Shown: positions 3,926 through 44,000 of the stretch, piece by piece | Layout of the letters: every line of letters begins with the position of its first letter | Position numbering within the stretch: position 1 is the first letter of the stretch | The notes under the pieces: model-generated | Told to the model about the DNA's origin: nothing | The model's input: only the letters and a program-made list of their open reading frames with translations | The model's database searches: none | NCBI GenBank assembly: GCA_002269645.1 | Contig: NIVC01003967.1 | Span: 3,331-67,330, forward strand | Reading direction: 5' to 3' | Source: Macrostomum lignano | Taxonomy: Eukaryota | Length of the DNA: 64,000 bases | Translations under genes and position numbers: made by a program

Positions 3926-4944
3926 TATCTTTCCAGGGGCTCCAATCTACATCTCTGTCAGCGGAAGAACTCATCGAAAATGTAACTATAAAGGAAATTT
4001 AAAGACACTGTTGCGTCGCATGTTTGCAAAAGCACTTCTAAGGAGTCAATCACTCTCAATGCAGCATAAGACACAGCTACTCGTCATTCTGCATAATTTA
4101 TCACCCCAGCTAACTCCTATCAAGCTCAATGATCTTAAACGCAGTAGAAATCACTCACCAAGCCCCCAGTCAGTTTCAGCGGACCAATGAGGATCCTGGT
4201 AGCTACCGGAGCCCAATTCTATTTGTATTAAATATCCCATCCCCCAAAGCCACTGGGCTGGCCCTAGCCATAAAAATCTAGAGGAAATTGAAGTTATTTC
4301 AGCTGAAAATTTGCTCCGACTAAAACCGTGCATTTCGATTATCTGGATGAGGCAGAATTTTACAAGCAGCAATTCTACTGCTCCTGATGAGTTCGAGATG
4401 AGTAAGTATTTCACTCCCCAAACCTGTAGACAGTCAGCAATAATGAAATCGTATTTGTTTTATTAGGCTCTCGACTCAGAGTGATCTATGAGACCTCGGT
4501 TGAGACTAGCCTGGTATAGGAAGGCATATATTATTTAGCTGCATTAAGTAACGACTTGTTTTTTTCTGCGAGGTGTGCAGTAAACAGTTTTTTATTCCTC
4601 GTTTTCACTGCTGCTCTCACCGCGGCCAGCAAGTGTCAGAGCTGCGACGCGGGGCAGCTTGTAAATCAGCTGGCCAAAAATGCTTTATGTCGCATTTCTA
4701 GTCAGTATGAGTCTGCCTAGCTCGGGGGCCGCTTGCTTGGGAAGGCAGGGAGAGCAAAATGCTCGTCCATTTCTGCGGAGTGCCCGGTTGCAGTGGCGTC
4801 AGTCTCCGATGGGTGGGGGAAATGATGGACTGACCGGCACTGACTCGCTCCCGGGGCTAATGCTGCCCGGATCCGAAAGCTGCTGGGAGGAGTGTCTAAT
4901 GATGAAGGATACCAGAACAATGGGAAAGTAAGAGACTTTAAAAA

Positions 4945-4949
4945 GATAG

Positions 4950-4982
<33 letters not shown>

Positions 4983-4991
4983 TAGGTAGAC

Positions 4992-5085
<94 letters not shown>

Positions 5086-5416
5086 ATAAGTAGATAGATA
5101 GGTAGATAGATAGGTAGATAGATAGGTATATAGATAAGTAGATAGATAGGTAGATAGATAGGTAGATAGATAGATAAGTAGATAGATAGATAAATAGATA
5201 GATAAGTAGATAGATAGATAAGTAGATAGATAGATAAGTAGATAGATAGATAAGTAGATAGATAGGTAGATAGATAGGTAGATAGATAGATAAGTAGATA
5301 GATAGGTAGATAGATAGATAAGTAGATAGATAGATAAGTAGATAGATAGATAAGTAGATAGATAGATAAGTAGATAGATAGATAAGTAGATAGATAAGTA
5401 GATAGATAGGTAGATA
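4945..5416. repeat. Degenerate (GATA)n microsatellite with GATAAGTA/GGTA variants
   Basis: Direct reading. Confidence 0.95.
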
Positions 5417-5991
5417 TGAATAGCCAGTTTGACATGTGGATGATCGGGCAGATAAACAAAGGCACACAGGAGATGGACAGAGTCGACTGCTTCAAAGAGG
5501 GAATCAAATATGAACTCCTGCCGTCATTAGAAAATTCAGAGGCGGATTGTCCGAGGTCGGCAGCTCCATTCACTTTTCCAAATCCCATTCATAGCAGTCA
5601 ATGGGGAGTCCGCTGTCATTGTTGAAAAGATAATTAAGCCTTTCAATGGCAGCTGTCAATCAATGCGGGCCATTTCTTATCGATTTTTTACACAATAAAT
5701 ACCTTTTTTGTGACCACCGCTCCCCGCAGAAGACCTGGAGGCTGAGCTGCGTCAGGTGTTTATTGAGAAGCCAAGCAGTCCTGAGCAGCTCGGAGGCCGC
5801 GCTGAACTTCGTCAACAGAAGAAGATAAAGGCGCCCGTTTCAGGTAAATGCTTGGGCGGAGGTGGCAGCGCATCTGCTCAGCTCTTGTTCACAGCAATCA
5901 TGAGTGCTGCGGAGCATGTACTGGTAAAATGTAGACAGAGAAGCTTCTGACTCTCGCGCCGCGAAACCTGGTGCGATCAGTATACGCACAA

Positions 5992-6557
<566 letters not shown>

Positions 6558-7868
6558 GTGTCAGTCGGTTTCTTATTGGCTGACAGGAGGCCCCAGCAGG
6601 CCAGAAGAAGCCGGCCGAATGCACCGGGAAGGGGAGGGGGCAGCCAAGCCAGATGTTCAGGGAGTGTCGAGGCGCGGCATAATGAGTCGGGCGGCATCCC
6701 CCCTAGCAATATGTATATGAGCATATGAGTATAAATATCCGCGCGGACGAACTCGGGCTTTTATGGCTGGACAAGGCAAAAGTGGAACTTTTTCTTCAAG
6801 CCTCGAAGTTGCATTTGCTGCAGCTCTGATCAAGACCGACCGGAACAGAAGGCGCTTGTCTGTCAGATTTAGAAGAGAGTAAATGGACCAGCTGGGCGAG
6901 TACTCGAGAATGCGGGATGCTCAGAGCGTCTGCGGGGCTGCTAAATCTGGCGCAGCTGCACCGCCATCGGCTGCCCACTCAGCCCAACATCGTGAGCCTC
7001 CCTGAAATGTCCACCAAGTAGCGCCGTATAATAAATAAGCGTAACTCCCTTCATTAGTCCTTTAGCATGCAATACAGGAAGGCAGAATATTAGGCCGGAG
7101 CCATCCATCCAGGTTAATTCGTTTAGTAAATATTTTTAATGCTTCACTCTGTTACACGCGCTAGAATATTGAAGCTGTCTCGGCCATTCGATCATATGGG
7201 GACTTTAAATCCGCTGTTAATTGTGCCTTGCTTCTAACACCGTTTTTTTAACAGGAAATTTAAAATTTCTACCTTCCGTTTTCAATGTTTGGCACCTTTT
7301 TTTGCATTTTGCATTTCGCACTTCAAGAAGACAGATCAGCTCAGATACGGCCGTCATCTTGGACTTTTACCAGACTTATAACTCTATAGTGCATTAGCAC
7401 ATCCCCGTCTGAAGTAAACTCAATCAGTTAATGCAGCGCTTGCTTTAACTTGCCGTAATAAATCAGTTCAGTTATGCTACGCGCTCTCGCTGGTTCTGTA
7501 AATGGCATACTTGAGTCGTTAATAAAAGCATTGCCATTGGGTTTTTGTCAAATTTCAGTAAGTAAATGTATTTCAATAGCAGCGGAACAAGGGAATAACA
7601 ACTGTGATGTATAATGCTGTTAATAACAAAGAAGGCTTTACAGATGCTGTGTCCCAACTTACAATGATTCTAAAGCATTGAAGCATATTGACGCTATTGA
7701 CGCCTAGTGGGTATTTGAACAGGATAAAATACATGTACACGCTTTCAAGATTTCGTATGTACTTTCAGTCAAAATATCAAACACAGTGATAGAATTGCAT
7801 TTGCTGAGCCATGCAATTTAAAAAGTTGCAAGCATCCCGGACACGACCCCCACCCCTCAGGTGGCGGC

Positions 7869-11813: not shown

Positions 11814-12504
<691 letters not shown>

Positions 12505-13157
12505 ATGCCTAAGTTTTGCAAGAAAGCTAACCCAAAAACGGCAAAATTCATTTCAGACTTTAACCAATTGATATAACAACAAACAGGTGATTTCTTCAAT
12601 GTACATGGAGGTTCCATAAACGACCATAAAAAGCTGGATAGAAATGCGCATGGTATGAACAGTGCGGTTGCTTAGTACATGTAGGTGATGGGGAGTTTTG
12701 AGTAGAGGGACGGAGAGTGATTTTAAGCAGTGAACCCACGTTGCTAACGAGGTGGGTAAGCAATGTTCCCTCCTCTCCCTCCATCACTAAGGCCTATTAT
12801 TCTTCTTTTTGAGGAAGTTGGAAAATGGAATAGAAGTGTACAGTGGCGGGGGCAGGGTAGGGCAGTTTGTGTATCGCATTCAAAACGTCTTGCAGCTCCG
12901 ACTTCTCGCTTCAGGCAAGCCGCAAGTTCACCTGTTAAAAAAGCAAACGCTTTATTGTTCTGTTTAGCTGACTGCGTCATTATGAAGAGCAGGCAAAATG
13001 GCAGCGACTCCCAACAGTTGATGACAATGTTTCCCCAACGCAGTCAAGGTGCAAACAGTCGCTACCTGGCTCCGCTACCGCCGCCGCCACAGCATCCAAG
13101 AGCATTCGGTAATGCGCCTGCATCCGCATCAGTGCGCTCACATCAGCAGATGAACAG

Positions 13158-13463
13158 AGTAGTATAGAAAAAGACGCTTACAGACCCAGAGCACTTTATT
13201 AATGACCGTTTTAAGGGTCTAGAGGGGGGACACGGGGGGTAAATAAAAAAACACATCTAAACACCATTAATACATCTAATCACCCATAATCACCCCTAAC
13301 AATAAAAATCATTCCCAACACTTCCAAACACTCCCCAACACCCCCTCGCGTCCCCCCTCTTAAGACCTTAAAAACGGCCATTAAAATAAGGTCTGATCTG
13401 TAAGCGTCTTTTTCTATACTACTACTCTATAACCCCTTGCCCGCGCCGCAGGCGCGAAGGGTC
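13158..13463 (+). repeat. Left terminal inverted repeat (306 bp)
   Basis: Reverse complement of 30025-30330 with one mismatch (13198). Confidence 0.97.
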
Positions 13464-13648
13464 GGAAAGAATAGAAGCTATTTATAGTCAGCTCACCTAC
13501 CCACCCAACATTCCATTTAGACCAGATTTTAGACCAAACAAAACTAGACTATCGTTTTGGTTTTCGTTTTCAAAAATTTGGTCTAAAATCTGGTCCAAAT
13601 GGAATGCAGACAATCTTTTTTCTGTTACTAAAAATAGAACAAAAAATG

Positions 13649-24654: not shown

Positions 24655-25408
24655 TTAATCCTCATCGTCCTCTTTCATCAGATCTTTTAAGATTCGATTT
24701 TTCCTTTCTAACCTTGGGTTGATATATATATGTTTGTATTGGCTATCATCCCAAATTTTTTTACACAACTTTTAAATGTTTTGTATCCAACCCAGGATTA
24801 AATCTAGCGTGTATATTTTGTAAATCATAATTATCTAAATCAAACATTACACAACAACTTGCATTCTTTTTTATAATCGATTCTAATTCTCTAAAGGACT
24901 GTGTTAGATAAAAAGCTCCAATTCCATCTCCTCTACCACTAACAAAAATTTCCTTTTGCAATTCTTGATCACCGTCATTAATACAATCATCAAAAATAAT
25001 TAGTGTTTTATCATGTTTTGGAATTTGATCATAGGCTAATCGGGTTGATACTCTAACAGTTGGGGCTCGTTCGGTGATGTTTTCTGGTTGTTGTGCCATT
25101 GTTTTACATAAATCCTCAATGTCATCGAGTGTAAATCGCGGTTCGTCATCATCCTCATATTGCTCATATGCTCTTAACATTCTAAACAAGACATCTTTTT
25201 TTAATTTGTTTTTTAATCCATGTTTAAGAAATTCATAATATTTTATTCTAGGTTTGTTAGTATAAATTATTAAATTATTATAGTCTAACATTCCATCTGT
25301 TGTTAATAAATCGTAAACAAAGTGTGTTTTTCCTTTACCTGATCCTCCGATTACTAAACAAAGAAAAGGATCATTTGGAAATATCTTATCGTGTTTTGCC
25401 TTTACCAT
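24655..25408 (-). CDS. A32/FtsK-HerA-like genome packaging ATPase; C-terminal frameshift near 24770
   Basis: Walker A GGSGKGKT, Walker B LIIFDD, GRG..YLTQS; the other frame continues LCKKIWDDSQYKHIYINPRL...EDDED* to 24655. Confidence 0.92.
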
Positions 25409-25423
25409 TTTTAAAGAAATAAT

Positions 25424-26896
25424 TTAAATAGGCGCGTCCCGAACAATCGTGCCATCAGCTTTAGCAATTGACATATATTCCTCTAGAAACAATACGTGTG
25501 CGTCTATTGCCTGATTACCAGTTTTATTAATCTCTAACATATAATTAAGTCCAATATTGGCTACGTTTTCTTTCTGTGCCGTTAGATCATAAACAACCAC
25601 TGGATGAATGTTTAGAAACTCTGTGGGTGTGTACTGAGGGACGGCATACGCTTCATTTTTGGCATAATCTTGATAATATTTTATAAAATCATTAACATTA
25701 TTATTTGCTATATTTAAATTTAGGGGGTCTTTAACCGGATAATATTGATCATCAACCTGCAGGCGGATATTCTGAACATTAAACTCGTTAATAGCTGCAG
25801 CCGCATTGTCTGTTGCGGTGGCTGCTTGTTCTGCTATGGCACCGGATTGAAGCCAATATAAATCCCCATTTGCTCTTTTACTCCTTCTGTTTGTTATTTT
25901 AAACCAAACAAAAATATATCTCACCCGACGTTTTGATGTCAGTATTTGCCACTGGAATGAATCCTGGTTATTATTAATGGTTCGCATAAAATGTCGACGA
26001 TTCAAATAAAATATTTCCTGATCATGCGTTAACTGATTATCAATGTGTTTTAAAAGTGGGGCTGTTACCTCAATAGTTGGTACGACTAATTGAATTGAAT
26101 CTATACGAACTGCTATATCGGTTGAAATTGAGGTTCCATAAAGTATCCTAGGCTGATATCCACCAGATATTTGCAACTGTATCCCAAATTTTAATCCTTT
26201 CCATACCCGATTTGGTGAGAAGAACCCAAATAGCGGGAAGATTGAAAAGTCCTGCTCATATGCCGTTGCCGTGGTTAAAACTGCAACTGGGAATTTATTC
26301 TGGCGATCTATAAAGCCGGTGTTAATATCTTTTGTATTAGTCATAGTGGTTACAACTGGAACTATGTTTGTATTAAGGTAAGCAATTAGAGCTGCAGTAT
26401 CTGCACCAGCTGCGTTTTGTACATTAGGGAAAACTACTGCTTGACCGTTACCTTTATCCGGCATCCACCCAACATTATCACCAACTTGTTTTGATAAATA
26501 AGTATAATTTAAATGTTTCAAAACTCCATTAATCTCTGCGGGGTTTGATGATGTCTCAACCTCAGCACCATTAACAGTTAGTTGAGCTTGGGAAAAACAT
26601 TTATAAAACCAATCATTTTCTATTATTATTCCGGATCGATCTGCGATATCTCCGGCTGCAAGAGCAGTTCCATCATTTCTAGTATACAACCATCTAACGC
26701 GGAAAAACGCATTTTTCATATCCAATATAGTGTTGGTTGCGCCGATGTCAAAAGTTACCGTTCCAGTAGTAAAGTTATTTGAATTATCACTTGTTGGTAG
26801 GGTATAATTTAAATCTCTTGCTCTGACCTCATTAATATACTGTCGGTGCTTTTTGAAATGAAATTTATCACTCCACATAGTTTTTGTTTCAGCCAT
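25424..26896 (-). CDS. Major capsid protein (double jelly-roll, PY), 490 aa, intact
   Basis: Size; beta-rich sequence; position next to ATPase and penton; NDWFYKCFSQAQLTVNGAEVE, RVRYIFVWF, NIRLQVDDQYYP and VVYDLT segments typical of Polinton MCPs. Confidence 0.88.
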   Translation of the reverse strand: MAETKTMWSDKFHFKKHRQYINEVRARDLNYTLPTSDNSNNFTTGTVTFDIGATNTILDMKNAFFRVRWLYTRNDGTALAAGDIADRSGIIIENDWFYKCFSQAQLTVNGAEVETSSNPAEINGVLKHLNYTYLSKQVGDNVGWMPDKGNGQAVVFPNVQNAAGADTAALIAYLNTNIVPVVTTMTNTKDINTGFIDRQNKFPVAVLTTATAYEQDFSIFPLFGFFSPNRVWKGLKFGIQLQISGGYQPRILYGTSISTDIAVRIDSIQLVVPTIEVTAPLLKHIDNQLTHDQEIFYLNRRHFMRTINNNQDSFQWQILTSKRRVRYIFVWFKITNRRSKRANGDLYWLQSGAIAEQAATATDNAAAAINEFNVQNIRLQVDDQYYPVKDPLNLNIANNNVNDFIKYYQDYAKNEAYAVPQYTPTEFLNIHPVVVYDLTAQKENVANIGLNYMLEINKTGNQAIDAHVLFLEEYMSIAKADGTIVRDAPI

Positions 26897-26929
26897 TTTT
26901 TTAAGTTAAAAATTTTTTTATGTTAAAAA

Positions 26930-27601
26930 ATGAGTCAATTTATGGACGTTGATGGAGAGTTAGCGATTTATAAAGAGAAGCAAAGATATTCTGATTTTGT
27001 TAGAAATTTACAAAAAAGAAAGTTAGGAATACAATTAGCTGGCGAAAGATTTGCTGCTCCTTTTGTTAATCCTATTACTGGGAAAATTAGTGAACTAGAA
27101 AAAACAGATAAAGATCTTCTGGAAAAAATTGCTACGAATACTGAGCCAAAAGAGGATGAAATTTTGGATGAGCCGCCTACTTATGGTGTTGCTCATGCAC
27201 AATTGAGAGTTGCAGAGATTAGACGTGCAGAAAGGAATGGAGTTGAACAATATCAGAGAGCTGCACCACAAAGTATTGCTGTGATGGATTTAGGTAATGA
27301 TAATTATCGAATTGGTGGAGTTGATAAAAATCAGAATGAACTATATACAGAATTGGGTGGAGCGTTTAATATTATTATGAACCCTAGGGTAAAGTTTAAC
27401 CCTGAATTATATACTAGAGATGAATTAGTAAGTGCAAAAATTTTTTATGATGAGTTGGGAATAAGAGCTGCTAAAAATACCAGCTTGTATAAAAGGATTG
27501 TTGATTCTATAAATAACAAACCGGTCGTTGGTGAAGGATTTAAAACTCCTAGAAAACTTGTTTTAGCTGCTGCGAAAGCTGCTGGACATACTGGTGTTTA
27601 A
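26930..27601 (+). CDS. Polinton PZ-like protein, 223 aa
   Basis: C-terminal GEGF...KLVLAAAKAAGHT resembles the PZ-type L..A.K.AGNT motif; divergent from MCP. Confidence 0.6.
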   Translation: MSQFMDVDGELAIYKEKQRYSDFVRNLQKRKLGIQLAGERFAAPFVNPITGKISELEKTDKDLLEKIATNTEPKEDEILDEPPTYGVAHAQLRVAEIRRAERNGVEQYQRAAPQSIAVMDLGNDNYRIGGVDKNQNELYTELGGAFNIIMNPRVKFNPELYTRDELVSAKIFYDELGIRAAKNTSLYKRIVDSINNKPVVGEGFKTPRKLVLAAAKAAGHTGV

Positions 27602-27628
27602 TTAATTGTTAAATTTATTTTTTATAAA

Positions 27629-28198
27629 ATGGATGAAACAAAAATTTGTACTACGTGTAAAATTGAGAAACCGATGACTAAAGAATTTTTTTGTTGGAGA
27701 AACGATTCGAAAAAATTTAGAAATGATTGTCGATCATGTCATAATACTTCGTCTACAATGTGGATGAAAAACAATAAAGATAAATGGAAAGAATATAGAA
27801 AAAATAAATATCACACCGATGAAAATTACAAAAATATTACTCTAATTAGAAATAGAATAAATTGGGCGTTGAAAAATTTTAATGACAAGGACTATATCTC
27901 ATATCTTGGTTGCACAAAAGAATTCTTTTTTGATTGGTTAAATTTCACAAGAAATTATTATGTATCAAAAGATTATACTGGAAAGTTAGATATTGATCAT
28001 TTGATCCCCGCTTCTTCATTTACTTACAAAGATAATGACCAGATGAAAAAGTCTGAAAATTGGAGAAATAAAAGATACTTAACTAGCGCAGATAATCGCT
28101 ATAAAAAAGTTAAGCAACCAACTATCGAAGAATTTGCAAAACAATTAGTGTTAACTTGTATTTTTAAGGCTATTAAAAATGAACCAACTTGTGTTTGA
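27629..28198 (+). CDS. Zn-finger + HNH endonuclease-like protein, 189 aa
   Basis: CTTC..CRSC N-terminus; LGCT; DIDHLIP...NWRN..L...DN..K C-terminal HNH pattern as in NCLDV HNH nucleases. Confidence 0.75.
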   Translation: MDETKICTTCKIEKPMTKEFFCWRNDSKKFRNDCRSCHNTSSTMWMKNNKDKWKEYRKNKYHTDENYKNITLIRNRINWALKNFNDKDYISYLGCTKEFFFDWLNFTRNYYVSKDYTGKLDIDHLIPASSFTYKDNDQMKKSENWRNKRYLTSADNRYKKVKQPTIEEFAKQLVLTCIFKAIKNEPTCV

Positions 28199-29453
28199 AG
28201 GAGGATTGTTAGATGTTCAAAAAGGATTAACAAGCTTACCACCAATCTTTACTACTGGAAGGTATACAAATGAATTACACATCCCATCTTACAACTTCGC
28301 AGGCCCGGGGACTAGGTTAGATTTGAGATTAAATCCTGATAATACTCCAAAAGCCGATTCAATTCCCATTAACGGTATTGATTGGTTAGCATACTATCAT
28401 GACTTAGCATACAGAGATGCTGATAAGAACTCACCCGAGGAAGCATTAAGATTAAAACATGAAGCCGATAGAAAAATGATTCAAGGATTAGATAACTTAC
28501 AGGGCTTATCGGTAGGTCAAAAATTAACTAGATGGATGGTTAAAAAAATCTTACAGTCTAAAGTTAAATTTGGTTTGGGAATTAATTATAATCAACATGG
28601 AAATAATTGTGTTGAGTGTTTATTATTAAGTGGTAGTGGGTTAAGTTCTGATGAGGCAAAAGTTCTTCATAAAGAATATCGAAAACCTAAATTTTATAGA
28701 AAAATCATGAACTTCAAAAAGAATGAAATTTGGTATGCTGATTTAATGTCATTGCCGAGCGACAGAGGATATAAATATATTTTAACCATATTGGATGGTT
28801 TTACTCGATACGCGTGGGCAGTTCCTTTAAAATCCAAAAAGGGAGAGGAGGTTGCTGCTGCTTTTAGAAGTCTTGATGAAAAAAGTGAACGGTTGTGTGT
28901 TGATGAGGGAAAAGAATTTTACAATCCTCATATGTATAAATTATATCATTTTGAAAAAGGACAAGAAAGGAAAAAAGACGCGAATGGGGAGTATATTAAT
29001 AAAATTTATTCTATTTATGGAGAAAGTAAAAACGCATTAATAGAAAGATTTAATCGAACTTTAGGTAAGAAATTATGGTTTCAGTTTAGTCTTAATGGAA
29101 ACCAAAAGTGGGTAAAAATATTACCAGACGTTGTAAAAGATTATAACAATTCATATCATTCGGCTATAAAGATGACTCCTCAACAAGCTTATAACAATCC
29201 TGAAAAAGTTAAAGTTACTTTTGGAGAATTTGAAAAAAAGAAAACTAAAGGTTTTAAGGTTGGTGATTCTGTTTATATCTATAAATGGAAAGATAAGTTT
29301 GAAAAAGGAAGAAAAGGATATTGGAAGATAAGTGAGAAATTTACCATCAGTAAAGTTTTAAATACAAATCCTACAACCTATATAATTGCTGATAAGGATG
29401 GTGAAGAAATATTGGGTTCTTTTTATGAGAATCAGATATTATCTGCAAACTAA
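28179..29453 (+). CDS. Fusion of parvovirus VP1u-type phospholipase A2 and retroviral-type (RVE, DDE) integrase, 424 aa
   Basis: PLA2: YNFAGPGT Ca-loop and YYHDLAY catalytic HD. Integrase: WYAD, LCVDEGKEF, LIERFNRTL (D,D,E intact), then FKVGD..SH3-like C-terminus. One uninterrupted ORF. Confidence 0.93.
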   Translation: MNQLVFEGGLLDVQKGLTSLPPIFTTGRYTNELHIPSYNFAGPGTRLDLRLNPDNTPKADSIPINGIDWLAYYHDLAYRDADKNSPEEALRLKHEADRKMIQGLDNLQGLSVGQKLTRWMVKKILQSKVKFGLGINYNQHGNNCVECLLLSGSGLSSDEAKVLHKEYRKPKFYRKIMNFKKNEIWYADLMSLPSDRGYKYILTILDGFTRYAWAVPLKSKKGEEVAAAFRSLDEKSERLCVDEGKEFYNPHMYKLYHFEKGQERKKDANGEYINKIYSIYGESKNALIERFNRTLGKKLWFQFSLNGNQKWVKILPDVVKDYNNSYHSAIKMTPQQAYNNPEKVKVTFGEFEKKKTKGFKVGDSVYIYKWKDKFEKGRKGYWKISEKFTISKVLNTNPTTYIIADKDGEEILGSFYENQILSAN

Positions 29454-29463
29454 GTTCGAACAG

Positions 29464-29631
29464 TTACTTAAGACAACAAGGTAGTAAATTTTTTATAACA
29501 AACAAAAACAATATTATTACTATTATTGTTACTAATATTATTATTGACATTTGTTCAACTGTTATCAAACTTAAATTTTCATTAAGTTCATTAATCGGCA
29601 CATTTCCGATGTAGGAATAATTTACCTTCAT
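29464..29631 (-). CDS. Small single-pass membrane protein, 55 aa, with C-terminal CC (below the ORF-track threshold)
   Basis: TAAAAAAAATG start; MKVNYSYIGNVPINELNENLSLITVEQMSIIILVTIIVIILFLFVIKNLLPCCLK. Confidence 0.5.
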   Translation of the reverse strand: MKVNYSYIGNVPINELNENLSLITVEQMSIIILVTIIVIILFLFVIKNLLPCCLK

Positions 29632-29692
29632 TTTTTTTATATATATTTTTCATAATAAATGTCGTTTCTGTTATAGAATAATAATTCATTTT

Positions 29693-30007
29693 TTACATAA
29701 AAATTTCAATTTCATTCTCAGAATCACTGGTTTCATATGAGCTATTTGTTGATTCGGAATCTGTTGATCTAACCTCCCAATCATCCGAATTTAAATAATC
29801 TCCAAGTTGAAATATTAACTCTCCCTCTTGTTCTAATTCATACATCTCATCTAGCTCTAATGGATAAAGCTTTAGGTCATGCTTGTCGTCATATTTTAAA
29901 TAAACTTCATCAATTATTCCATTCAAAATATGTTGTTTTATTATCTCTGCATTTTTAGCAACAGTCTCAAAAGTATCACTAACAGAAAAGGTGTAAACTC
30001 GGGTCAT
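29693..30007 (-). CDS. Polinton acidic hypothetical protein, 104 aa
   Basis: CTAAAAATG start 17 nt inside the right TIR boundary. Confidence 0.6.
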   Translation of the reverse strand: MTRVYTFSVSDTFETVAKNAEIIKQHILNGIIDEVYLKYDDKHDLKLYPLELDEMYELEQEGELIFQLGDYLNSDDWEVRSTDSESTNSSYETSDSENEIEIFM

Positions 30008-30024
30008 TTTTAGTAACAGAAAAA

Positions 30025-30330
30025 GACCCTTCGCGCCTGCGGCGCGGGCAAGGGGTTATAGAGTAGTAGTATAGAAAAAGACGCTTACAGATCAGACCTT
30101 ATTTTAATGGCCGTTTTTAAGGTCTTAAGAGGGGGGACGCGAGGGGGTGTTGGGGAGTGTTTGGAAGTGTTGGGAATGATTTTTATTGTTAGGGGTGATT
30201 ATGGGTGATTAGATGTATTAATGGTGTTTAGATGTGTTTTTTTATTTACCCCCCGTGTCCCCCCTCTAGACCCTTAAAACGGTCATTAAAAAAGTGCTCT
30301 GGGTCTGTAAGCGTCTTTTTCTATACTACT
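30025..30330 (-). repeat. Right terminal inverted repeat (306 bp)
   Basis: Reverse complement of 13158-13463. Confidence 0.97.
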
Positions 30331-33300
30331 GAACAGGTCGACGCATCGCTCGATCGAGCAGTGCCGAAAATCCGCTAACGCTGACGAAGCTTACAAGCAG
30401 TTGTGGCTGCAAGCCTGTCACCTGCCATTCGACAACGATCTGGAGACCAGCGACATAAGGGAAGGCATAGAGTGCGACGATTTTCGAGTTTGGCGCAATT
30501 TCAGCACCGATCTGGGACTCGATCTGTCGAGTGTCGGGTCCGAACGAGGCCGTCGAACCGCCGCCATTGCCGAGTGCTACCCGTTCAGAGTGCCACCGCC
30601 AAGCCGCATGGGCGTCAGTTCGCTCGGCGAGTAAGTGCTGCATGGCGTTAGGCACGCAGATTTAAGACCACAAAGTGTCTTTTGATAGACAAAGAAGCCT
30701 CGCTGAGAAGGTTAACGATAATTTATGGTCGGATCACTACCAACGGCCATATCTCGTATGCATTAGCAAGCTCAATGAAATCTCAAGAAGGCCTTCTGCA
30801 ACGACAGACAGTAAAAAAGAAGACAATAAGACACACTAGGGTACACTAATACAATAATAAAACTCATAGATAGTACTAAGACAGCTTAAGACTAAAAAGT
30901 GCATCAGCCAGAGACTTATGTACAAAGCGACGAAAAGAGATATGCAGGCTTTGTGAGAAGGGAAAAAACTCCTTCTGTGTATTTGATGCCAGTGTGAACG
31001 AACATTATAGCTCTCTATAATAAATTCTCTATATAGTTCTCTACAGTTAAACTATTGTTGCATGCCATTGATCGATGTATGCATGGAGAAAGTGAACAGG
31101 AAGATTAGCAATTTTGAACGACTTGGAAAATTGTTCAATAAGTGAGGACCATATACGAGATTGAATGATTTCCAGTTTAAAAAAACTGAAACCATTTTAG
31201 TATATGGGGACTAGACAGTGCACCCCCAGGGGGGATAGTCAGGTAAATTATTTTCGATTTTCGACAGCTGACACTGCCGCATACAGAAACTGCTCTCAAC
31301 TTTGTGCAGCTATCTCGAATCCTCTGTCGTTGGGCGGCAGAAACGGAGCCGACAGCTCGCCCAGATGCGCCGCTTTGAGTCCCGAACGGCGGCGCAACTC
31401 GCCGGCTTGTCGTCAGTTCGTCGGCCGTCCCTGGACGCTGTCGGCCGAATCAAGCCGCCGCCGGGCTACAAACGATACCCGCCGACGCGTTTGTCGAAAC
31501 CAACGGCTCTCGTTGACGAACTGGACCCGGACTCCGCCGAGGTGATCACGGCTGACATGCAGCCGGACCTGTTTGGAAAGCTGGTGAAGAAGCGCCCGCC
31601 AAAACTGTGGAAGCTCAGCTACAAGACTGCTGGCGGCGGTGGCGACCAAGCCTTGAAGCGACAGCAGGCGCCTGCGAAGATAAAGACCCGATTTGAGCTG
31701 GCGAAATCTCCGACTAAATCGGCGTTTGCTACCGCCGACTGCATGCTGGCTCCGTCTGGAGGCAGAGACTGATTTGAGTGTTGCTTGTTTGGTGCACTCA
31801 ATTTGACTAACAACATAAGGGGCAAATCCGGGTGTAAAGTCGGGATTTTAATTGGTGAATCACGGCAATCTTTAGTGACGTCAATTCATTGGAGTATGGA
31901 GCCGAATAGTTACTGGGACCGCACCCTAATTGCGGCCATTCGATCGCTATGTACAGTTAACTCGTACACCATCATGTACATGAACACCAACTTTTTTCTA
32001 GTGATAAGTAAGCAACGGAATGATGTGAAATTTGGTTTTTCAAAGAGTTGAATAATCGTGTTTCTCTTGCGACTTTTATAAACAAAAAGTTGTCTCTCTT
32101 TATATTCGTGAAGAAACAATAAAATATACCCATTCTTATATTGCAAAATGTTGAAGATATACTTAAAAAATCTTACAATTATTACTGCCAGTAGTGCAAA
32201 AAGCAAAAAAAGCTTATCCTCGGAAGGAGAGAAATCAAAGCTAAATACTACGTAGCTTTTCTATGCATAGATAGAATTACGTAGGGCATTAGCTAGGATA
32301 TAAAAAATGCGAGCATTCGAACACTCAAAGCCATCTACACTTGAGACAGTCAAACTCTCGCTTTATAATTAAATTTTTATCTATAAAGCCTATAGAAAAG
32401 ATGGACCAGGGACAGACGCGTGCCAAACACTGACAAGTTGCTGTTTGCATTGCCACTATGATGAATAGAAAAATAAGAAGCCTCGATCGCTTAAGCTGAC
32501 TACCTGCAACGGCAAGCTGGTACTCACAGAAGGAGAAGGCAAACCCTGTGTCTTTTCGTAGAGCTAGTTTGAGACACTGGGCAAGACAAGCAGTCAAATT
32601 TCTGTGACATGTCAGACGTGATTTTGTGCTTGAAGAAAAGAAATAAACGCGAGATTGAGACTTTTTTATCTTTTTATTTAAACTAAACTCAAACCAGAGA
32701 GTTGTTTTGCTGCAAGGAAAATACTGACGGCAGCAACTGACAGAATTATATTTAGTAGTCAGTAGTTTTAACCAATAATTTATCCGGGGCCCACAGCATG
32801 GCCGCACACCCGGAAATGGAATTCAGTTCTAGCTGATAAGGGCGCTCCAGACATTTTTATGGTGCTTAACACCCCTAAAGCAGCTGGCGCACCGTCTGTT
32901 CAGTTTAATGTCAAGGATGCCTATGGTAGTCTTAAGTCCTTGTTAAATTCCATAGCTAGCAGTTATTGAGACCAACAATAGATGAAAAGCTCGATTTAAT
33001 TTGATTATAAAAAACTGACAACCCAAAGTTCTGATCATTTGAGTGATTTTTGCAGAAGCGAAATATGGGCATAAAATTGGGTTTTAGCGCAAAATTCAGG
33101 ACTGGAAGTCATACGCGTATTATTCCTACAGGTTTTCTCAGGTTCTTTTCATTCAAAAGGCTTTTGCAAAATTCAGACGCAATGCATAAGACACGACAAT
33201 TTAAGTAACCAGCATGTAGAGACAGAGTACAACGGTCACAGCGGTAAACGCGTGACTCGGACTGGTTGTTCACACCTATAAGTGGCCCCCAGGACAGTGT

Positions 33301-38012: not shown

Positions 38013-41000
38013 TCAGACATCCTCGCCAAGGAAGCGCCTGGTCTTACGCAGAGCAGCCTCAACATCCGGCACACCACCCGCCGGTGGTCCATCATCGCGC
38101 AGAGCATTCCGAATTTTCTCCAACTCAAAGCGAGCCTCCTCAGGCGACGGTCCGAATTCGACTTCGTAGAATCTGCCCCGATCTGAGCTGTTCAACCACA
38201 TGGACCACTCCACAGCCGCTCGAGCATATTTGCTGTAGATCGACGGCGGTTCCGACAGGTTCAACGTCAATTCGCTACCGTCTCGAGCGAGCAGACGAGC
38301 AAAGCCCATCGGCGGCAGGTCGATAGGAGGCGCCAATGCAACTCGGCTACAGGCGGCTGGGAGAAGCTCCGGCCTCAGCTGGATGGCGTAGTCTAGCTGG
38401 ACTCGATCATCGAATACGATTCGTGCACGGCCATTGACGTTGACAGAGAATCGACCGACGCCAGGCACTTGGCGACAGTCGAGACCCACAGCTGGCTTCA
38501 CGTCAGACTCTGTTGGCTGGAGAGATAAATGCGTCATGTACTATGTATACATTATGGGGATTACCGCTTGAACACACGATGGGAATTACCACTTAAATAC
38601 ACGATGGGGATTCCCGCTTGAACACACGATGGGGATTCCCGCTTGAACACACGGTGGGGATTTCTCCCTTGAACACACGATGGGGATTCCCACTTGAACA
38701 CACGATGGGGATTTCTCCCTTGAACACACGATGGGGATTCCCACTTGAACACACGATGGGGATTTCTCCCTTGAACACACGACGGGGATTCCCACTTGAA
38801 CACACGATGGGAATTACCACTTAAATACACGATGGGGATTCCCGCTTGAACACAAGATGGGGATTTCTCCCTTGAACACACGATGGGGATTCCCGCTTGA
38901 ACACACGATGGGGATTCCCGCTTGAACACACGATGGGGATTTCTCCCTTGAACACATGATGGGGATTCCCGCTTGAACACACGATGGGGATTTCTCCCTT
39001 GAACACACGATGGGGATTCCCGCTTGAACACACGGTGGGGATTTCTCCCTTGAACACACGATGGGGATTCCCGCTTGAACACACGGTGGGGATTTCTCCC
39101 TTGAACACACGATGGGGATTCCCACTTGAACACACGATGGGGATTTCTCCCTTGAACACACGATGGGGATTCCCACTTGAACACACGATGGGAATTACCA
39201 CTTAAATACACGATGGGGATTCCCGCTTGAACACAAGATGGAAATTTCTCCCTTGAACACACGATGGGGATTTCTCCCTTGAACACACGATGGGGATTTC
39301 TCCCTTGAACACACGATGGGGATTCCCGCTTGAATACACAGTGGGAATTCCCAATTAAAAACGCAAAATGAGGATTCCCACTTAACACGCAATGGGAATT
39401 CCCTCTTGAACACAAGATGGGGATTCCCACTTGAACATACGGTGGGGATTTCCACTTGAATAAAAGATGGGGATTCCCCCTTGAATACACGATGGGAATT
39501 CCCCCTTGAACACAAGACGAGGATTCCCGCTTGAACACACGATGGGAATTCCCGCTTAAACACACGATGGGATTCCCGCTTGAACACACGATGAGAAATC
39601 CCGCTTAAACACACGATGGGAATTCCCGCTTGAACACACGCTGGGGATTCCCACTTAAACACAAGATGGGGGTTCTCACTTAAATACACGGTGGGGATTC
39701 CCACTTGAATAAAAGATGGGGATTCCCCCTTGAATACACGATGGGAATTCCCCCTTGAACACAAGATGAGGATTCCCCCTTGAATACACGATGAGAATTC
39801 CCACTCGAATACAGGATGGGGATTCCCGCTTAAACACACGATGGGGATTCCCACTTGAATACACGATGAGAATTCCTGCTTGAATACACGATGGGAATTC
39901 CTACTTAAAAGCACACTTCTCAAAAAGCAACTACGCAATAAAATTGATATTAAAAAAGCTAACTTACGTCAACATCTCGATCGTCTTGATCGATATTCCA
40001 ACAGCACTGAGCCGGAACTGACAACTGAGACTGCTCAGCTTCGATGGCCAGCAGTGAGCACAGAGCAGCAGCTCTCTTAACAGTCCGAGCCAGATACTGG
40101 TCGCTGCTGCCTCCGCCGCCCCGACAGACCAGATCCGCAGTACGGCACCAGCTCTGCGACCCGTCGCCAGCTAAGCGTTCAAAATAAGCGCCGCGTAGGT
40201 CGCGAGAAATCAAAACGGATTTGTCGCCAGGTTGCACCAGAACTGCTGGCGAGGCAGCGCCACTGCCGCTGCTGCGTCTAGCGAGTCTGATGATGGAGAT
40301 TGGGCGAAACATGAAGATTGGCCTTTATGGGCGTGAATCGCAGAAAACCCCACCTGGACAATTCTCGAATCTTCCAGGCCGTCAGGAAGAACAAGCATAA
40401 TAGATATTTCACAAATTTATCCAATTCAACTTGCAGATCTGTTTACACTACTAACAGTAGGCTCGCTTGCAAATCACCTGTACACGACGCCATCTCGGCA
40501 GACGATGCGTATGGATTTCAGCTCAGGCGCCGCCGCAGACAGCCATTGAAGGCCCGAAGGTGGAGTTGGAGCTGAGGATGCGCCGAAACCGAACTCGTGC
40601 AGATGTGGCTGACGACAGCGGCGGGGCACTGGCTGAGTACGGGGAGTGGCCACCGCCCACCGCGACCCGGACTGGCCTCTGTGTGATAATTTATTAACCA
40701 ATATGTATGCATAGGTGTGATGACTTACCATTTAGGATTGTGAAATCAGCGAACTCAAATAGCGCATGCTTTACGAATTCAGTTATAATGCGATTCACTA
40801 ATTCAGAGACACAGATTCACTGATTCCGAAATACAGATTCACCAATTCAGAGATACAGATTCACCAATTCAGAGATACAGATTCACCAATTCAGAGACAC
40901 GGATTCACTGATTCAGAAATACAGATTCACCAATTCAGAGATACAGATTCACCAATTCAGAGATACAGATTCACCAATTCAGAGACACGGATTCACTGAT

Positions 41001-44000
41001 TCAGAAATACAGATTCACCAATTCAGAGATACAGATTCACCAATTCAGAGATACGGATTCACCAATTCAGAGATACGGTTTCACTAATTCAGAGATACGG
41101 TTTTACCAATTTAGAGACACGGATTCACTGATTCAGAAATACAGATTCACCAATTCAGAGATACAGATTCACCAATTCAGAGACACGGATTCACTGATTC
41201 AGAAATACAGATTCACCAATTCAGAGATACAGATTCACCAATTCAGAGATACGGATTCACCAATTCAGAGATACAGATTCACCAATTCAGAGATACAGAT
41301 TCACCAATTCAGAGACACGGATTCACTGATTCAGAAATACAGATTCACCAATTCAGAGATACAGATTCACCAATTCAGAGACACGGATTCACTGATTCAG
41401 AAATACAGATTCACCAATTCAGAGATACAGATTCACCAATTCAGAGATACGGATTCACCAATTCAGAGATACGGTTTCACTAATTCAGAGATACGGTTTT
41501 ACCAATTCAGAGATACAGATTCACTAATTCAGAGATACAGATTCACCAATTTAGAGACACGGATTCACTGATTCAGAAATACAGATTCACCAATTCAGAG
41601 ATACAGATTCACCAATTCAGAGATACAGATTCACCAATTCAGAAATACAGATTCACCAATTCAGAGATACAGATTCACCAATTCAGAGATACAGATTCAC
41701 CAATTCAGAGATACAGATTCACCAATTCAGAAATACAGATTCACTAATTCAGAGATTCGGATTCACCAATTCAGAGATACAGATTCACCAATTCAGAGAC
41801 ATGGATTCACTGATTCAGAGATACAGATTCACCAATTCAGAGATACAGATTCACCAATTCAGAGATACAGATTCCCCAATTCAGAGATACAGATTCACCA
41901 ATTCAAAGATACAGATTCACCAATTCAGAAATACAGATTCACCAATTCAAAGATACAGATTCACCAATTCAGAAATACAGATTCACCAATTCAGAGATAC
42001 AAATTCGCCAATTCAGAAATACAGATTCACCAATTCAGAGATACAGATTCACCAATTCATAGATACAGATTCACCAATTCAGAGATACAGATTCGCCAAT
42101 TCAGAAATACAGATTCACCAATTCAGAGATACAGATTCACCAATTCAGAGATACAGATTCCCCAATTCAGAAATACAGATTCACCAATTCAAAGATACAG
42201 ATTCACCAATTCAGAAATACAGATTCACCAATTCAGAGATACAAATTCACCAATTCAGAAATACAGATTCACTAATTCAGAGATTCGGATTCACCAATTC
42301 AGAGATACAGATTCACCAATTCAGAGACACGGATTCACTGATTCAGAAATACAGATTCACCAATTCAGAGATACAGATTCACAAATTCAGAGACACAGAT
42401 TCACCAATTCAGAGATACAGATTCACCAATTCAGAGATACAGATTCACCAATTCAGAGATACAGATTCCCCAATTCAGAGATACAGATTCACCAATTCAA
42501 AGATACAGATTCACCAATTCAGAAATACAGATTCACCAATTCAGAGATACAAATTCGCCAATTCAGAAATAAAGATTCACCAATTCAGAGATACAGATTC
42601 ACCAATTCATAGATACAGATTCACCAATTCAGAGATACAGATTCGCCAATTCAGAAATACAGATTCACTAATTCAGAGATTCGGATTCACCAATTCAGAG
42701 ATACAGATTCACCAATTCAGAGACATGGATTCACTGATTCAGAAATACAGATTCACCAATTCAGAGATACAGATTCACCAATTCAGAGATACAGATTCAC
42801 CAATTCAGAGATACGGATTTACCAATTCAGAGACACAGATTCACCAATTCAGAGATACAGATTCACCAATTCAGAGATACGGATTCACCAATTCAGAGAT
42901 ACGGTTTCACTAATTCAGAGATCCGGATCTACCAATTCAGAAATTCGGACATGTCAACTCAGATAGGATATTCACTGAACTCGAACTAATAGAAGAAAAA
43001 GTCATAGTAGAGAAAGCATTAAACTTTACCTACCTAGCTCCCAAATCAGGCCAATGTCCTATGTGGTTTATTTGAACCAATCGACCAAACTTTTCCGGCG
43101 TTGTTGCGGCGTCAAACGGTTGGCCAAGAGCCAAACCGACAGGAACCTGAAATTGATTGGTTGACTGAGAAAATGAAACTCAAACTTTTAGTCTAGGGGC
43201 CAATCTGGGGGCGCCAATGTTAAGAAAAATGTATTATTAAATGTACGTATGAGGGTATCCAATCTAGGGTGCTAGGGGGCGCCAATCCGGGTGCTAGGTG
43301 AGGCGCCAATCCGGGTGCTAGGTGAGGCGCCAATCTGGGTGCTGGGGAGGCGCCAATCCAAGTGCTAGGGGAGGCGCCAATCTGGTTGCTAGGAGAGGCG
43401 CCAATCTGGGTGCTGGGGGAGGCGCCAATCTGGGTGCTAGGGGAGGCGCCAATCTGGTTGCTAGGAGAGGCGCCAATCTGGGTGCTGGGAGAGGCGCCAA
43501 TCCAGGTACTAGAGGAGGCGCCAATCCAGGTACTAGGGGAGGCGCCAATCTAGGTGCTGGGAGGGGCGCCAATTCAGGTGCTAGGGGAGGCGCCAATCCA
43601 GTTACTAGGGGAGGCGCCAATCTGGGTGCTAGGAGAGGCGCCAATCCAGGTACTAGGGGAGGCGCCAATCTGGGTGCTAGGAGAGGCGCCAATCTGGGTG
43701 CTGGGAGAGGCGCCAATCCAGGTACTAGGGGAGGCGCCAATCTAGGTGCTAGGGGAGGCGCCAATCAGGCGCCAATCTGGGTGCTGGAAAAGGCGCCAAT
43801 CTGGGTGCTAGGTGAGGCGCCAATCTGGGTATTAGGTGAGGCGCCAATCTGGGTGCTGGGGGAGGCGCCAATCCGGGTGCTAGGTGAGGCGCCAATCTGG
43901 GTGCTAGGTGAGGCGCTAATCTGGGTGCTAGGGGAGGCGCCAATCTGGGTGCTGGGAGAGGCGCCAATCCAGGTACTAGGGGAGGCGCCAATCTGGGTGC

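Follow-up and report, generated by a model that had tools for sequence, protein, structure and literature searches.

Animal Polintons/Mavericks (adintoviruses) have been described with (AGT)2//(ACT)2 ends (PMC8097293). The portions of the published accounts used here give them 6-bp TSDs, TIRs of a few hundred bp, a length of about 17 kb, and genes for pPolB, an rve integrase and an A32 ATPase, all of which the element described below likewise has (PMC8097293, PMC8502044, PMC10748475). Those portions mention neither a fold-back nested in the TIR nor arms that evolve together, and neither interchangeable types of TIR nor solo cassettes (PMC8097293, PMC8502044, PMC10748475). We found no description of such an architecture for Polintons in the literature searched, a search that stopped short of Kapitonov and Jurka 2006, Pritham 2007 and Repbase. 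The nearest described feature is the short terminal palindromes of the endogenous virophages/PLVs of Halocafeteria seosinensis, where, in the part of that work used here, an inverted repeat likewise lies within the TIR beside the TSD and hairpin priming has been proposed (10.64898/2026.07.28.741278). Those are 52-nt palindromes (gap limit 10), mostly in elements without pPolB, and that part of the work offers no evidence of exchange (10.64898/2026.07.28.741278), whereas the Macrostomum lignano element has imperfect arms of 80-90 bp, a loop of 60-100 nt, pPolB, conversion tracts and one extended end. For adenovirus and PRD1 the standard model is a panhandle formed with the far end, for which direct evidence is said to be lacking in the section we draw on (PMC11886824). 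There the pairing partner is the far ITR, whereas each end of the present Polinton has a partner of its own. Mutants of adenovirus are known in which the ITRs are embedded. To our knowledge, Polinton replication and exit from the chromosome have been modelled and never demonstrated.

The window, by which we mean the whole 64,000-nt stretch of M. lignano DNA analysed, contains an element of 17,173 bp (32.5% GC) that runs from 13158 to 30330 between two copies of the 6-bp TSD GAACAG (13152-13157 and 30331-30336). Its 306-bp TIRs, at 13158-13463 on the plus strand and 30025-30330 on the minus strand, differ by one mismatch. The pPolB gene (15614-19106, plus strand) carries an endonuclease VII-like insert (PF02945) and is represented in this copy by three ORFs (15614-17926, 18013-18480 and 18423-19106); among its 288 homologues are some that bear the name DNA-directed DNA polymerase or contain PF03175, and in sister copies PF03175 scores above cut-off. 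The HNH-type insert is like that of nematode and oomycete pPolB2 as far as the cited accounts describe it (PMC8097293, PMC8502044, PMC10748475). On the minus strand lie an A32-like packaging ATPase at 24761-25408 (PF04665, 30 bits, above cut-off) and, at 25424-26896, a 490-aa ORF that from its size and position is a probable major capsid protein and has three homologues, all unnamed. Size, position and motifs are also the basis for a tentative assignment of major and minor capsid proteins and an adenovirus-type protease; for these the ORFs scanned gave no informative Pfam match. At 28179-29453 on the plus strand, an N-terminal phospholipase A2-like domain and the rve integrase core (PF00665, E 1.1e-6, with 29.2 bits below the curated cut-off of 32.6) share one ORF; PLA2X is given as a separate gene in the part of the adintovirus literature used here. 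With a split pPolB, an A32 ATPase and an rve ORF among its genes, together with TIRs, a 6-bp TSD, (AGT)2//(ACT)2 ends and a length within the 13-25 kb range, the element is a Polinton/Maverick.

A retroviral-type integrase is in line with the insertion sites of the family. A 6-bp TSD was present at 17 of the 22 end pairs examined, with one more pair not parsable, and the target sites in the flanks of 108 TIRs are symmetric, with G first and C last in about 40%. The host DNA of the window contains long microsatellite and 22-bp minisatellite arrays (about 4800-6570, 11850-12500 and 40660-43000); two 4-bp host arrays are inverted to each other and lie 5.3 kb apart.

Each TIR starts with an outer arm (TIR positions 1-83), followed by a 101-nt loop and the mirror-image inner arm (185-266); a short linker then leads to a GC-rich hairpin. 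At the left end the outer arm with its (AGT)2 tip occupies 13158-13240, the loop 13241-13341 and the GC-rich hairpin 13434-13461 on the plus strand, while the inner arm, mirroring the outer one, lies at 13342-13423 on the minus strand and is perfect over its last 27 nt. At the right end the GC hairpin is at 30027-30054, the inner arm at 30065-30146, the loop at 30147-30247 and the outer arm at 30248-30330. The first-pass annotation had placed the terminal 27-mer forward at 13158 and 30065 and as a reverse complement at 13397 and 30304; these positions are correct and no further copy exists in the window. It had followed the similarity of the arms to about 75 bp. That similarity is real and extends to about 83 nt. 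Across the TIRs compared, identity between arms is 96% at positions 1-27, 56% at 28-36 and 86% at 28-83. The inner copy, described there as facing inward, is indeed a mirror copy; as an origin, however, it faces outward, to the host flank. Folding of both strands gave -74 and -75 kcal/mol (z about -12.8, with none of 100 shuffles as good). The loop is G-free on the plus strand and predicted to be unstructured (MFE 0). Rfam returned 14 matches, all to microRNA hairpin models, far below thresholds and none at gathering score, and a bacterial promoter scan gave no usable result.

Genome-wide, the exact 27-mer has 28 matches. Four are those within the window element; 22 of the other 24 were checked and are all inner arms, and two are unclassified. 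Its presence at an outer tip is therefore special to this copy. The architecture itself is shared by related Polintons: an inner arm was present in 40 of 40 scored TIR matches among 253 candidates, and searches with a degenerate arm pattern and a GC-hairpin pattern found 232 and 230 genome matches, respectively, each against none for its control. Moreover, the TIR is covered by contigs from four runs of four studies, and together with the spread through the family this rules out an assembly artefact; among the sequencing runs listed, no RNA run turned up.

From the loci retrieved we parsed 108 TIRs with distinct flanks, which are not independent, since the set includes both ends of certain elements as well as a small number of mis-registered rows. 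They fall into 85 of type I, the type of the window element, and 23 of type II. Type II elements have bodies about 84-95% identical to the window element and a TIR that is barely alignable with it, sharing with type I only the first bases and the GC hairpin. Arms of the two types align with a best score of 20, against a shuffled maximum of 26 (means 14.1 and 12.8), so that their similarity is at background level. Type II TIRs also fold back, with z of -8 to -26 at five ends. The stem is kept in 21 of the 23 type II rows, where its first pair falls at position 9-14 because the inner arm is without the terminal tip (9-10 nt). The idea that the element has four ends consequently fails as a conserved trait: what is conserved is a stem near the end rather than another end for the integrase. 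A type II arm that had been perfected was seen with two different flanks. In one type II insertion little of the inner arm is left at either end, while the TSD is still perfect. In type I, loops contain 1.6% G.

A deletion derivative of only 1.97 kb (L191, L193, L212 and L213) has a 6-bp TSD and the cassette at both ends; its right end is the fold-back cassette alone, with no GC hairpin, and its flanks are identical on three contigs. Elsewhere in the same genome the fold-back is absent at seven ends of five other pPolB elements, and Polintons in general therefore do not need it. Among the pPolB elements seen are some of 9-10 kb (L083-L085 and L089-L090, on G000:C173 and C491) with TIRs of about 1 kb that start with ACTACT, show no fold-back and hold internal tandem repeats.

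The first-pass annotation had made compensatory conservation between the arms a point to check, and the arms do co-vary. We compared the first 27 nt in 30 distinct pairs of type I arms. Arms of the same TIR differ there at 1.3 positions on average, and the inner arm of another TIR differs at 6.8. For 23 TIRs chosen for diversity out of the 85, RNAalifold gave 65 pairs, 29 of them with double-sided changes. At the tip, 97.4% of pair cells are paired, with 71 double-sided against 4 one-sided changes, and controls slid out of register were 29-54% paired. None of 10,000 permutations matched the arms within TIRs as well (one mis-registered row was dropped) and none of 500 shuffles equalled the 15 of 27 tip pairs with double changes, counts that are not probabilities, the rows being related copies. 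Changes are nearly all double-sided with few G-U intermediates. Such a shortage of G-U is more readily explained by copying of DNA than by selection for a helix in RNA, and we favour the former.

Traces of the copying can be seen in individual TIRs. Patchy conversion between arms runs in both directions (L029, L030, L033, L035, L055 and L159), with outer-to-inner tracts that in L033 and L035 extend to about position 53; L029, L030 and L055 have interior patches. At positions 23-24, 34 of 53 window-subtype rows are outer-type in both arms, 17 are mixed and two are inner-type in both. These two are both ends of the window element, and since the inner type is found at both outer tips the conversion preceded the insertion. 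Such inner-to-outer copying, together with a self-primed end described below, backs the earlier suggestion that the fold-back could act as a template for end repair. We consider the evidence that the arms pair and exchange to be good; a function is inferred.

Copying between arms yields co-variation without selection, and co-variation alone is thus compatible with no function. The fold-back may be a neutral by-product of a one-time snap-back duplication, its arms kept alike by quasi-palindrome template switching, and we hold this to be possible though rather improbable. Mutations that arise when synthesis switches template within imperfect inverted repeats are a known type in the part of the literature cited (PMC3820800), other families are without the feature, one insertion has lost it, and a second fold-back within the left end (see below) rearranges too. 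However, the same geometry and an unstructured loop have been retained in two barely alignable sequences, the best pairing is near the tip in both TIR types, and the cassette has been retained even in the minimal 1.97-kb derivative.

The self-primed end lies on G000:C2245. Here the outer tip is followed by another 19 nt copied from the sequence just inside the inner tip, and the extension stops one base into the 6-bp inner stem of the GC hairpin. Beyond the extension, 291 bp match without a difference the stretch of equal length that precedes the tip on C1480, which is intact. There is microhomology of one base, and other copies of the same host repeat continue unbroken at that point. C1480 and C2245 carry non-overlapping parts of the element and probably belong to one element. 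We read the C2245 end, a single case from assembled contigs, as a 3′ end that was free, folded onto its own strand and primed its own extension. The C1480 end would then have been put in by integrase and the extended C2245 end by host repair. In HIV and ASLV, DNAs of which a single end is defective produce similarly large duplications, and in such one-ended retroviral integration the bad end is likewise inserted with a duplication of hundreds of bp, according to the portion of that work used here (PMC5041404).

We propose, with about an even chance of being right, that a hairpin on the strand displaced in protein-primed replication gives a duplex end on the spot, acting both as a local panhandle and as a template for the end. 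We propose this because the architecture occurs in two barely alignable sequences, the arms co-vary, the orientation of the loop is fixed and one tip has been lengthened. Replication would start at a protein primer and proceed by strand displacement, as it does in adenovirus and PRD1. The displaced strand would pair at its 3′ end with the inner arm about 180 nt off faster than with the TIR 17 kb off. The full TIR-TIR duplex is predicted at -402 kcal/mol, compared with about -75 per hairpin; the far-end duplex is thus much more stable, and the local form would prevail on speed only. The local panhandle would serve as a complementary-strand origin, and each end could restart copying without finding the far end. 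Template switching within the hairpin would copy patches both ways between the arms and correct the type I tip as well. Self-priming from the folded 3′ end would happen rarely and by accident, and the GC hairpin would probably stall it; an end made in this way would be unusable by integrase, and host repair would insert it with an oversized duplication. The end, at about 300 nt, is a small defined substrate for tests of origin use and end processing.

The arms could instead be two inverted binding sites on duplex DNA for the polymerase-terminal protein, the integrase or packaging proteins, with pairing incidental. The near-perfect block of 25-27 bp near the tip in both types would suit such sites, as would the persistence in most lineages of the mismatch block at positions 28-36 (56% identity). 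Yet it is complementarity that is conserved between lineages and types and not the sequence of a site, and the extended tip requires strand pairing; we consider this explanation unlikely. Less likely again is an excision signal, in which the base of a hairpin formed in chromosomal single-stranded DNA would mark the junction, either for the integrase or for pPolB's endonuclease VII-like domain. The base of the type I stem does coincide exactly with the element-host junction, and pPolB does contain PF02945. However, the type II stem begins 9-14 nt inside, and the same nuclease motif occurs in three elements without a fold-back. A tie between the fold-back and the endonuclease VII-like domain was rejected, since the domain is also found in elements that have none.

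The ends had also been compared with those of parvoviruses, whose hairpin telomeres occur as flip/flop isomers. The feature they would share is a 3′ end able to fold back and prime. In type I this end pairs flush with its template, and one extension was seen. Rolling-hairpin replication has moreover been proposed for palindromic virophage ends in the part of that study used here (10.64898/2026.07.28.741278). As the main mode of replication in this Polinton we consider it very unlikely. The terminal isomers that a flip-flop would leave are missing, as 0 of 107 attached loops are inverted (the remaining one of the 108 rows is a mis-registered tip). In MVM, asymmetric resolution keeps one orientation, and such a mode would leave no inverted loops. 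Inversions do get seen when present, as shown by a second fold-back at 13509-13606, found at the left end only: of 26 copies, 5 have its 38-nt loop (13539-13576) in the inverted orientation, in both type I and type II elements. The top of this second structure is predicted to be branched. Unlike the parvoviral ends, the type II tip is unpaired at its 3′ end. No HUH/Rep nicking endonuclease family was detected by Pfam in the 19 ORFs scanned, a scan that a remote homologue would escape. Body-cassette-body palindromes of the window subtype numbered zero at spacings of 296-326. No strand-change joints were listed in four contig sets, such contigs being of a kind that cannot show ends. The preferred reading remains the hairpin on the displaced strand.

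The bases just past the inner tip allow a further and more doubtful suggestion. The first-pass annotation had noted an extra ACT at the inner copy; it is present here (13424-13426, plus strand), and only its first two bases are constant across variants, these being nearly invariant in type I. Of the 85 type I rows, 80 have AC directly after the inner tip, and the other five are four register errors and one substitution. Among 11 distinct 8-mers past the tip +1 is A in 10 and +2 is C in all 11, while +3 splits 7 to 4. Retroviral integrases remove two terminal bases. The type I inner arm might therefore be a built-in copy of the unprocessed viral end, with AC as the dinucleotide trimmed by integrase, although we think this improbable. 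An excised or displaced strand would fold back and refill its end from the inner arm, and the GC hairpin would stop the copying. Were this true, the arm would be a self-contained device that restores free ends to an integrated Polinton. AC past the inner tip could equally well be due to shared descent and the AGT repeat, and type II has no template for bases past the tip. Extra GT in the flanks, as a sign of untrimmed ends, was seen in 2 of 108 TIRs, which is no excess. Four outer-type arms are followed by ACT: two are conversions, one is the extension, and one is a 3-base match within chance.

Lastly, the integrase had been suggested to mobilise the cassette alone, in which case the Polinton would be a composite of two mini-elements. 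The search for solo cassettes found none at a site of its own with its own TSD among the 100 of 232 type I and 100 of 120 type II arm matches listed. Among the matches listed, no window-subtype inner tip adjoins host DNA and no window-subtype insertion starts at the inner tip as a usable inside end would. Solo window-subtype cassettes were absent from the 25 odd loci examined; one search for them gave a single apparent match, which is a normal TIR with a mutated extension, and another gave none. The one clear solo, on C2173, is of type II. It measures 242 bp, has both tips and is flanked by a TSD that agrees at 5 of 6 positions, as a mini-element might leave. However, its flanks are those of a 7.8-kb element on C578, so this solo shares the site of a full element, and its loop has the orientation of that element's right end, as a crossover predicts. 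By its flanks and orientation, the C2173 solo is best read as the product of a crossover between same-direction arms, and as solo-LTR-like rather than a MITE. A solo LTR arises when the body is deleted between same-direction repeats and a unit is left at the old site. In the Polinton, same-direction repeats exist only by virtue of the mirror copy that lies within each inverted TIR, and here too the body would have been deleted between them with the solo unit remaining. Transposition of the cassette by the integrase thus appears highly improbable.

For annotators, this means that a short palindrome with AGTAGT tips that passes for a "MITE" can be a deletion remnant of a Polinton. The genomic copies keep the marks of strand pairing in the form of two-way conversion, a self-primed tip with a one-ended scar and a remnant like a solo LTR. 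At L218 (G000:C986, 337.2-337.8 kb) two type II cassette remnants lie around a host tandem repeat; one of them may be a second solo, and it has no matching TSD. A left-left structure on C87 was considered as a trait of the element and rejected, being an inverted duplication that takes in the host flank. At L219 (G000:C2506) the tip of one element adjoins the linker of another's TIR, apparently a nested insertion. The linker also varies: a 9-bp C/A-rich unit expands to arrays able to replace the loop and inner arm, and an insertion can be intact on one contig and array-replaced on another (L196 vs L206; L136, L143-L145; L040).

Outside M. lignano, no relatives of the feature were found in viral contigs or in a first metagenome scan, and a second metagenome scan gave 33 loci, none with a recognisable AGTAGT tip and fold-back. 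One of the 33 (L234, 183-453) has a comparable 271-bp fold-back with z of -13 ahead of ORFs leading to a related polymerase; it is a candidate end only. The fold-back of L242, also from a metagenome, is weak (z -2.7), and L245 is a 16.8-kb metagenome contig with 114-bp TIRs.

Just inside the left GC hairpin, window positions 13464-13615 form an exchangeable cassette, which here is 152 bp long and contains the second fold-back. In other copies it is an unrelated sequence of ~345 bp or is absent (L010, L011, L014, L017, L019, L021, L027 and L040). The ~345-bp version contains what we take to be AP-1-like and TATA-like words, and these exchangeable left cassettes are possibly swappable promoters.
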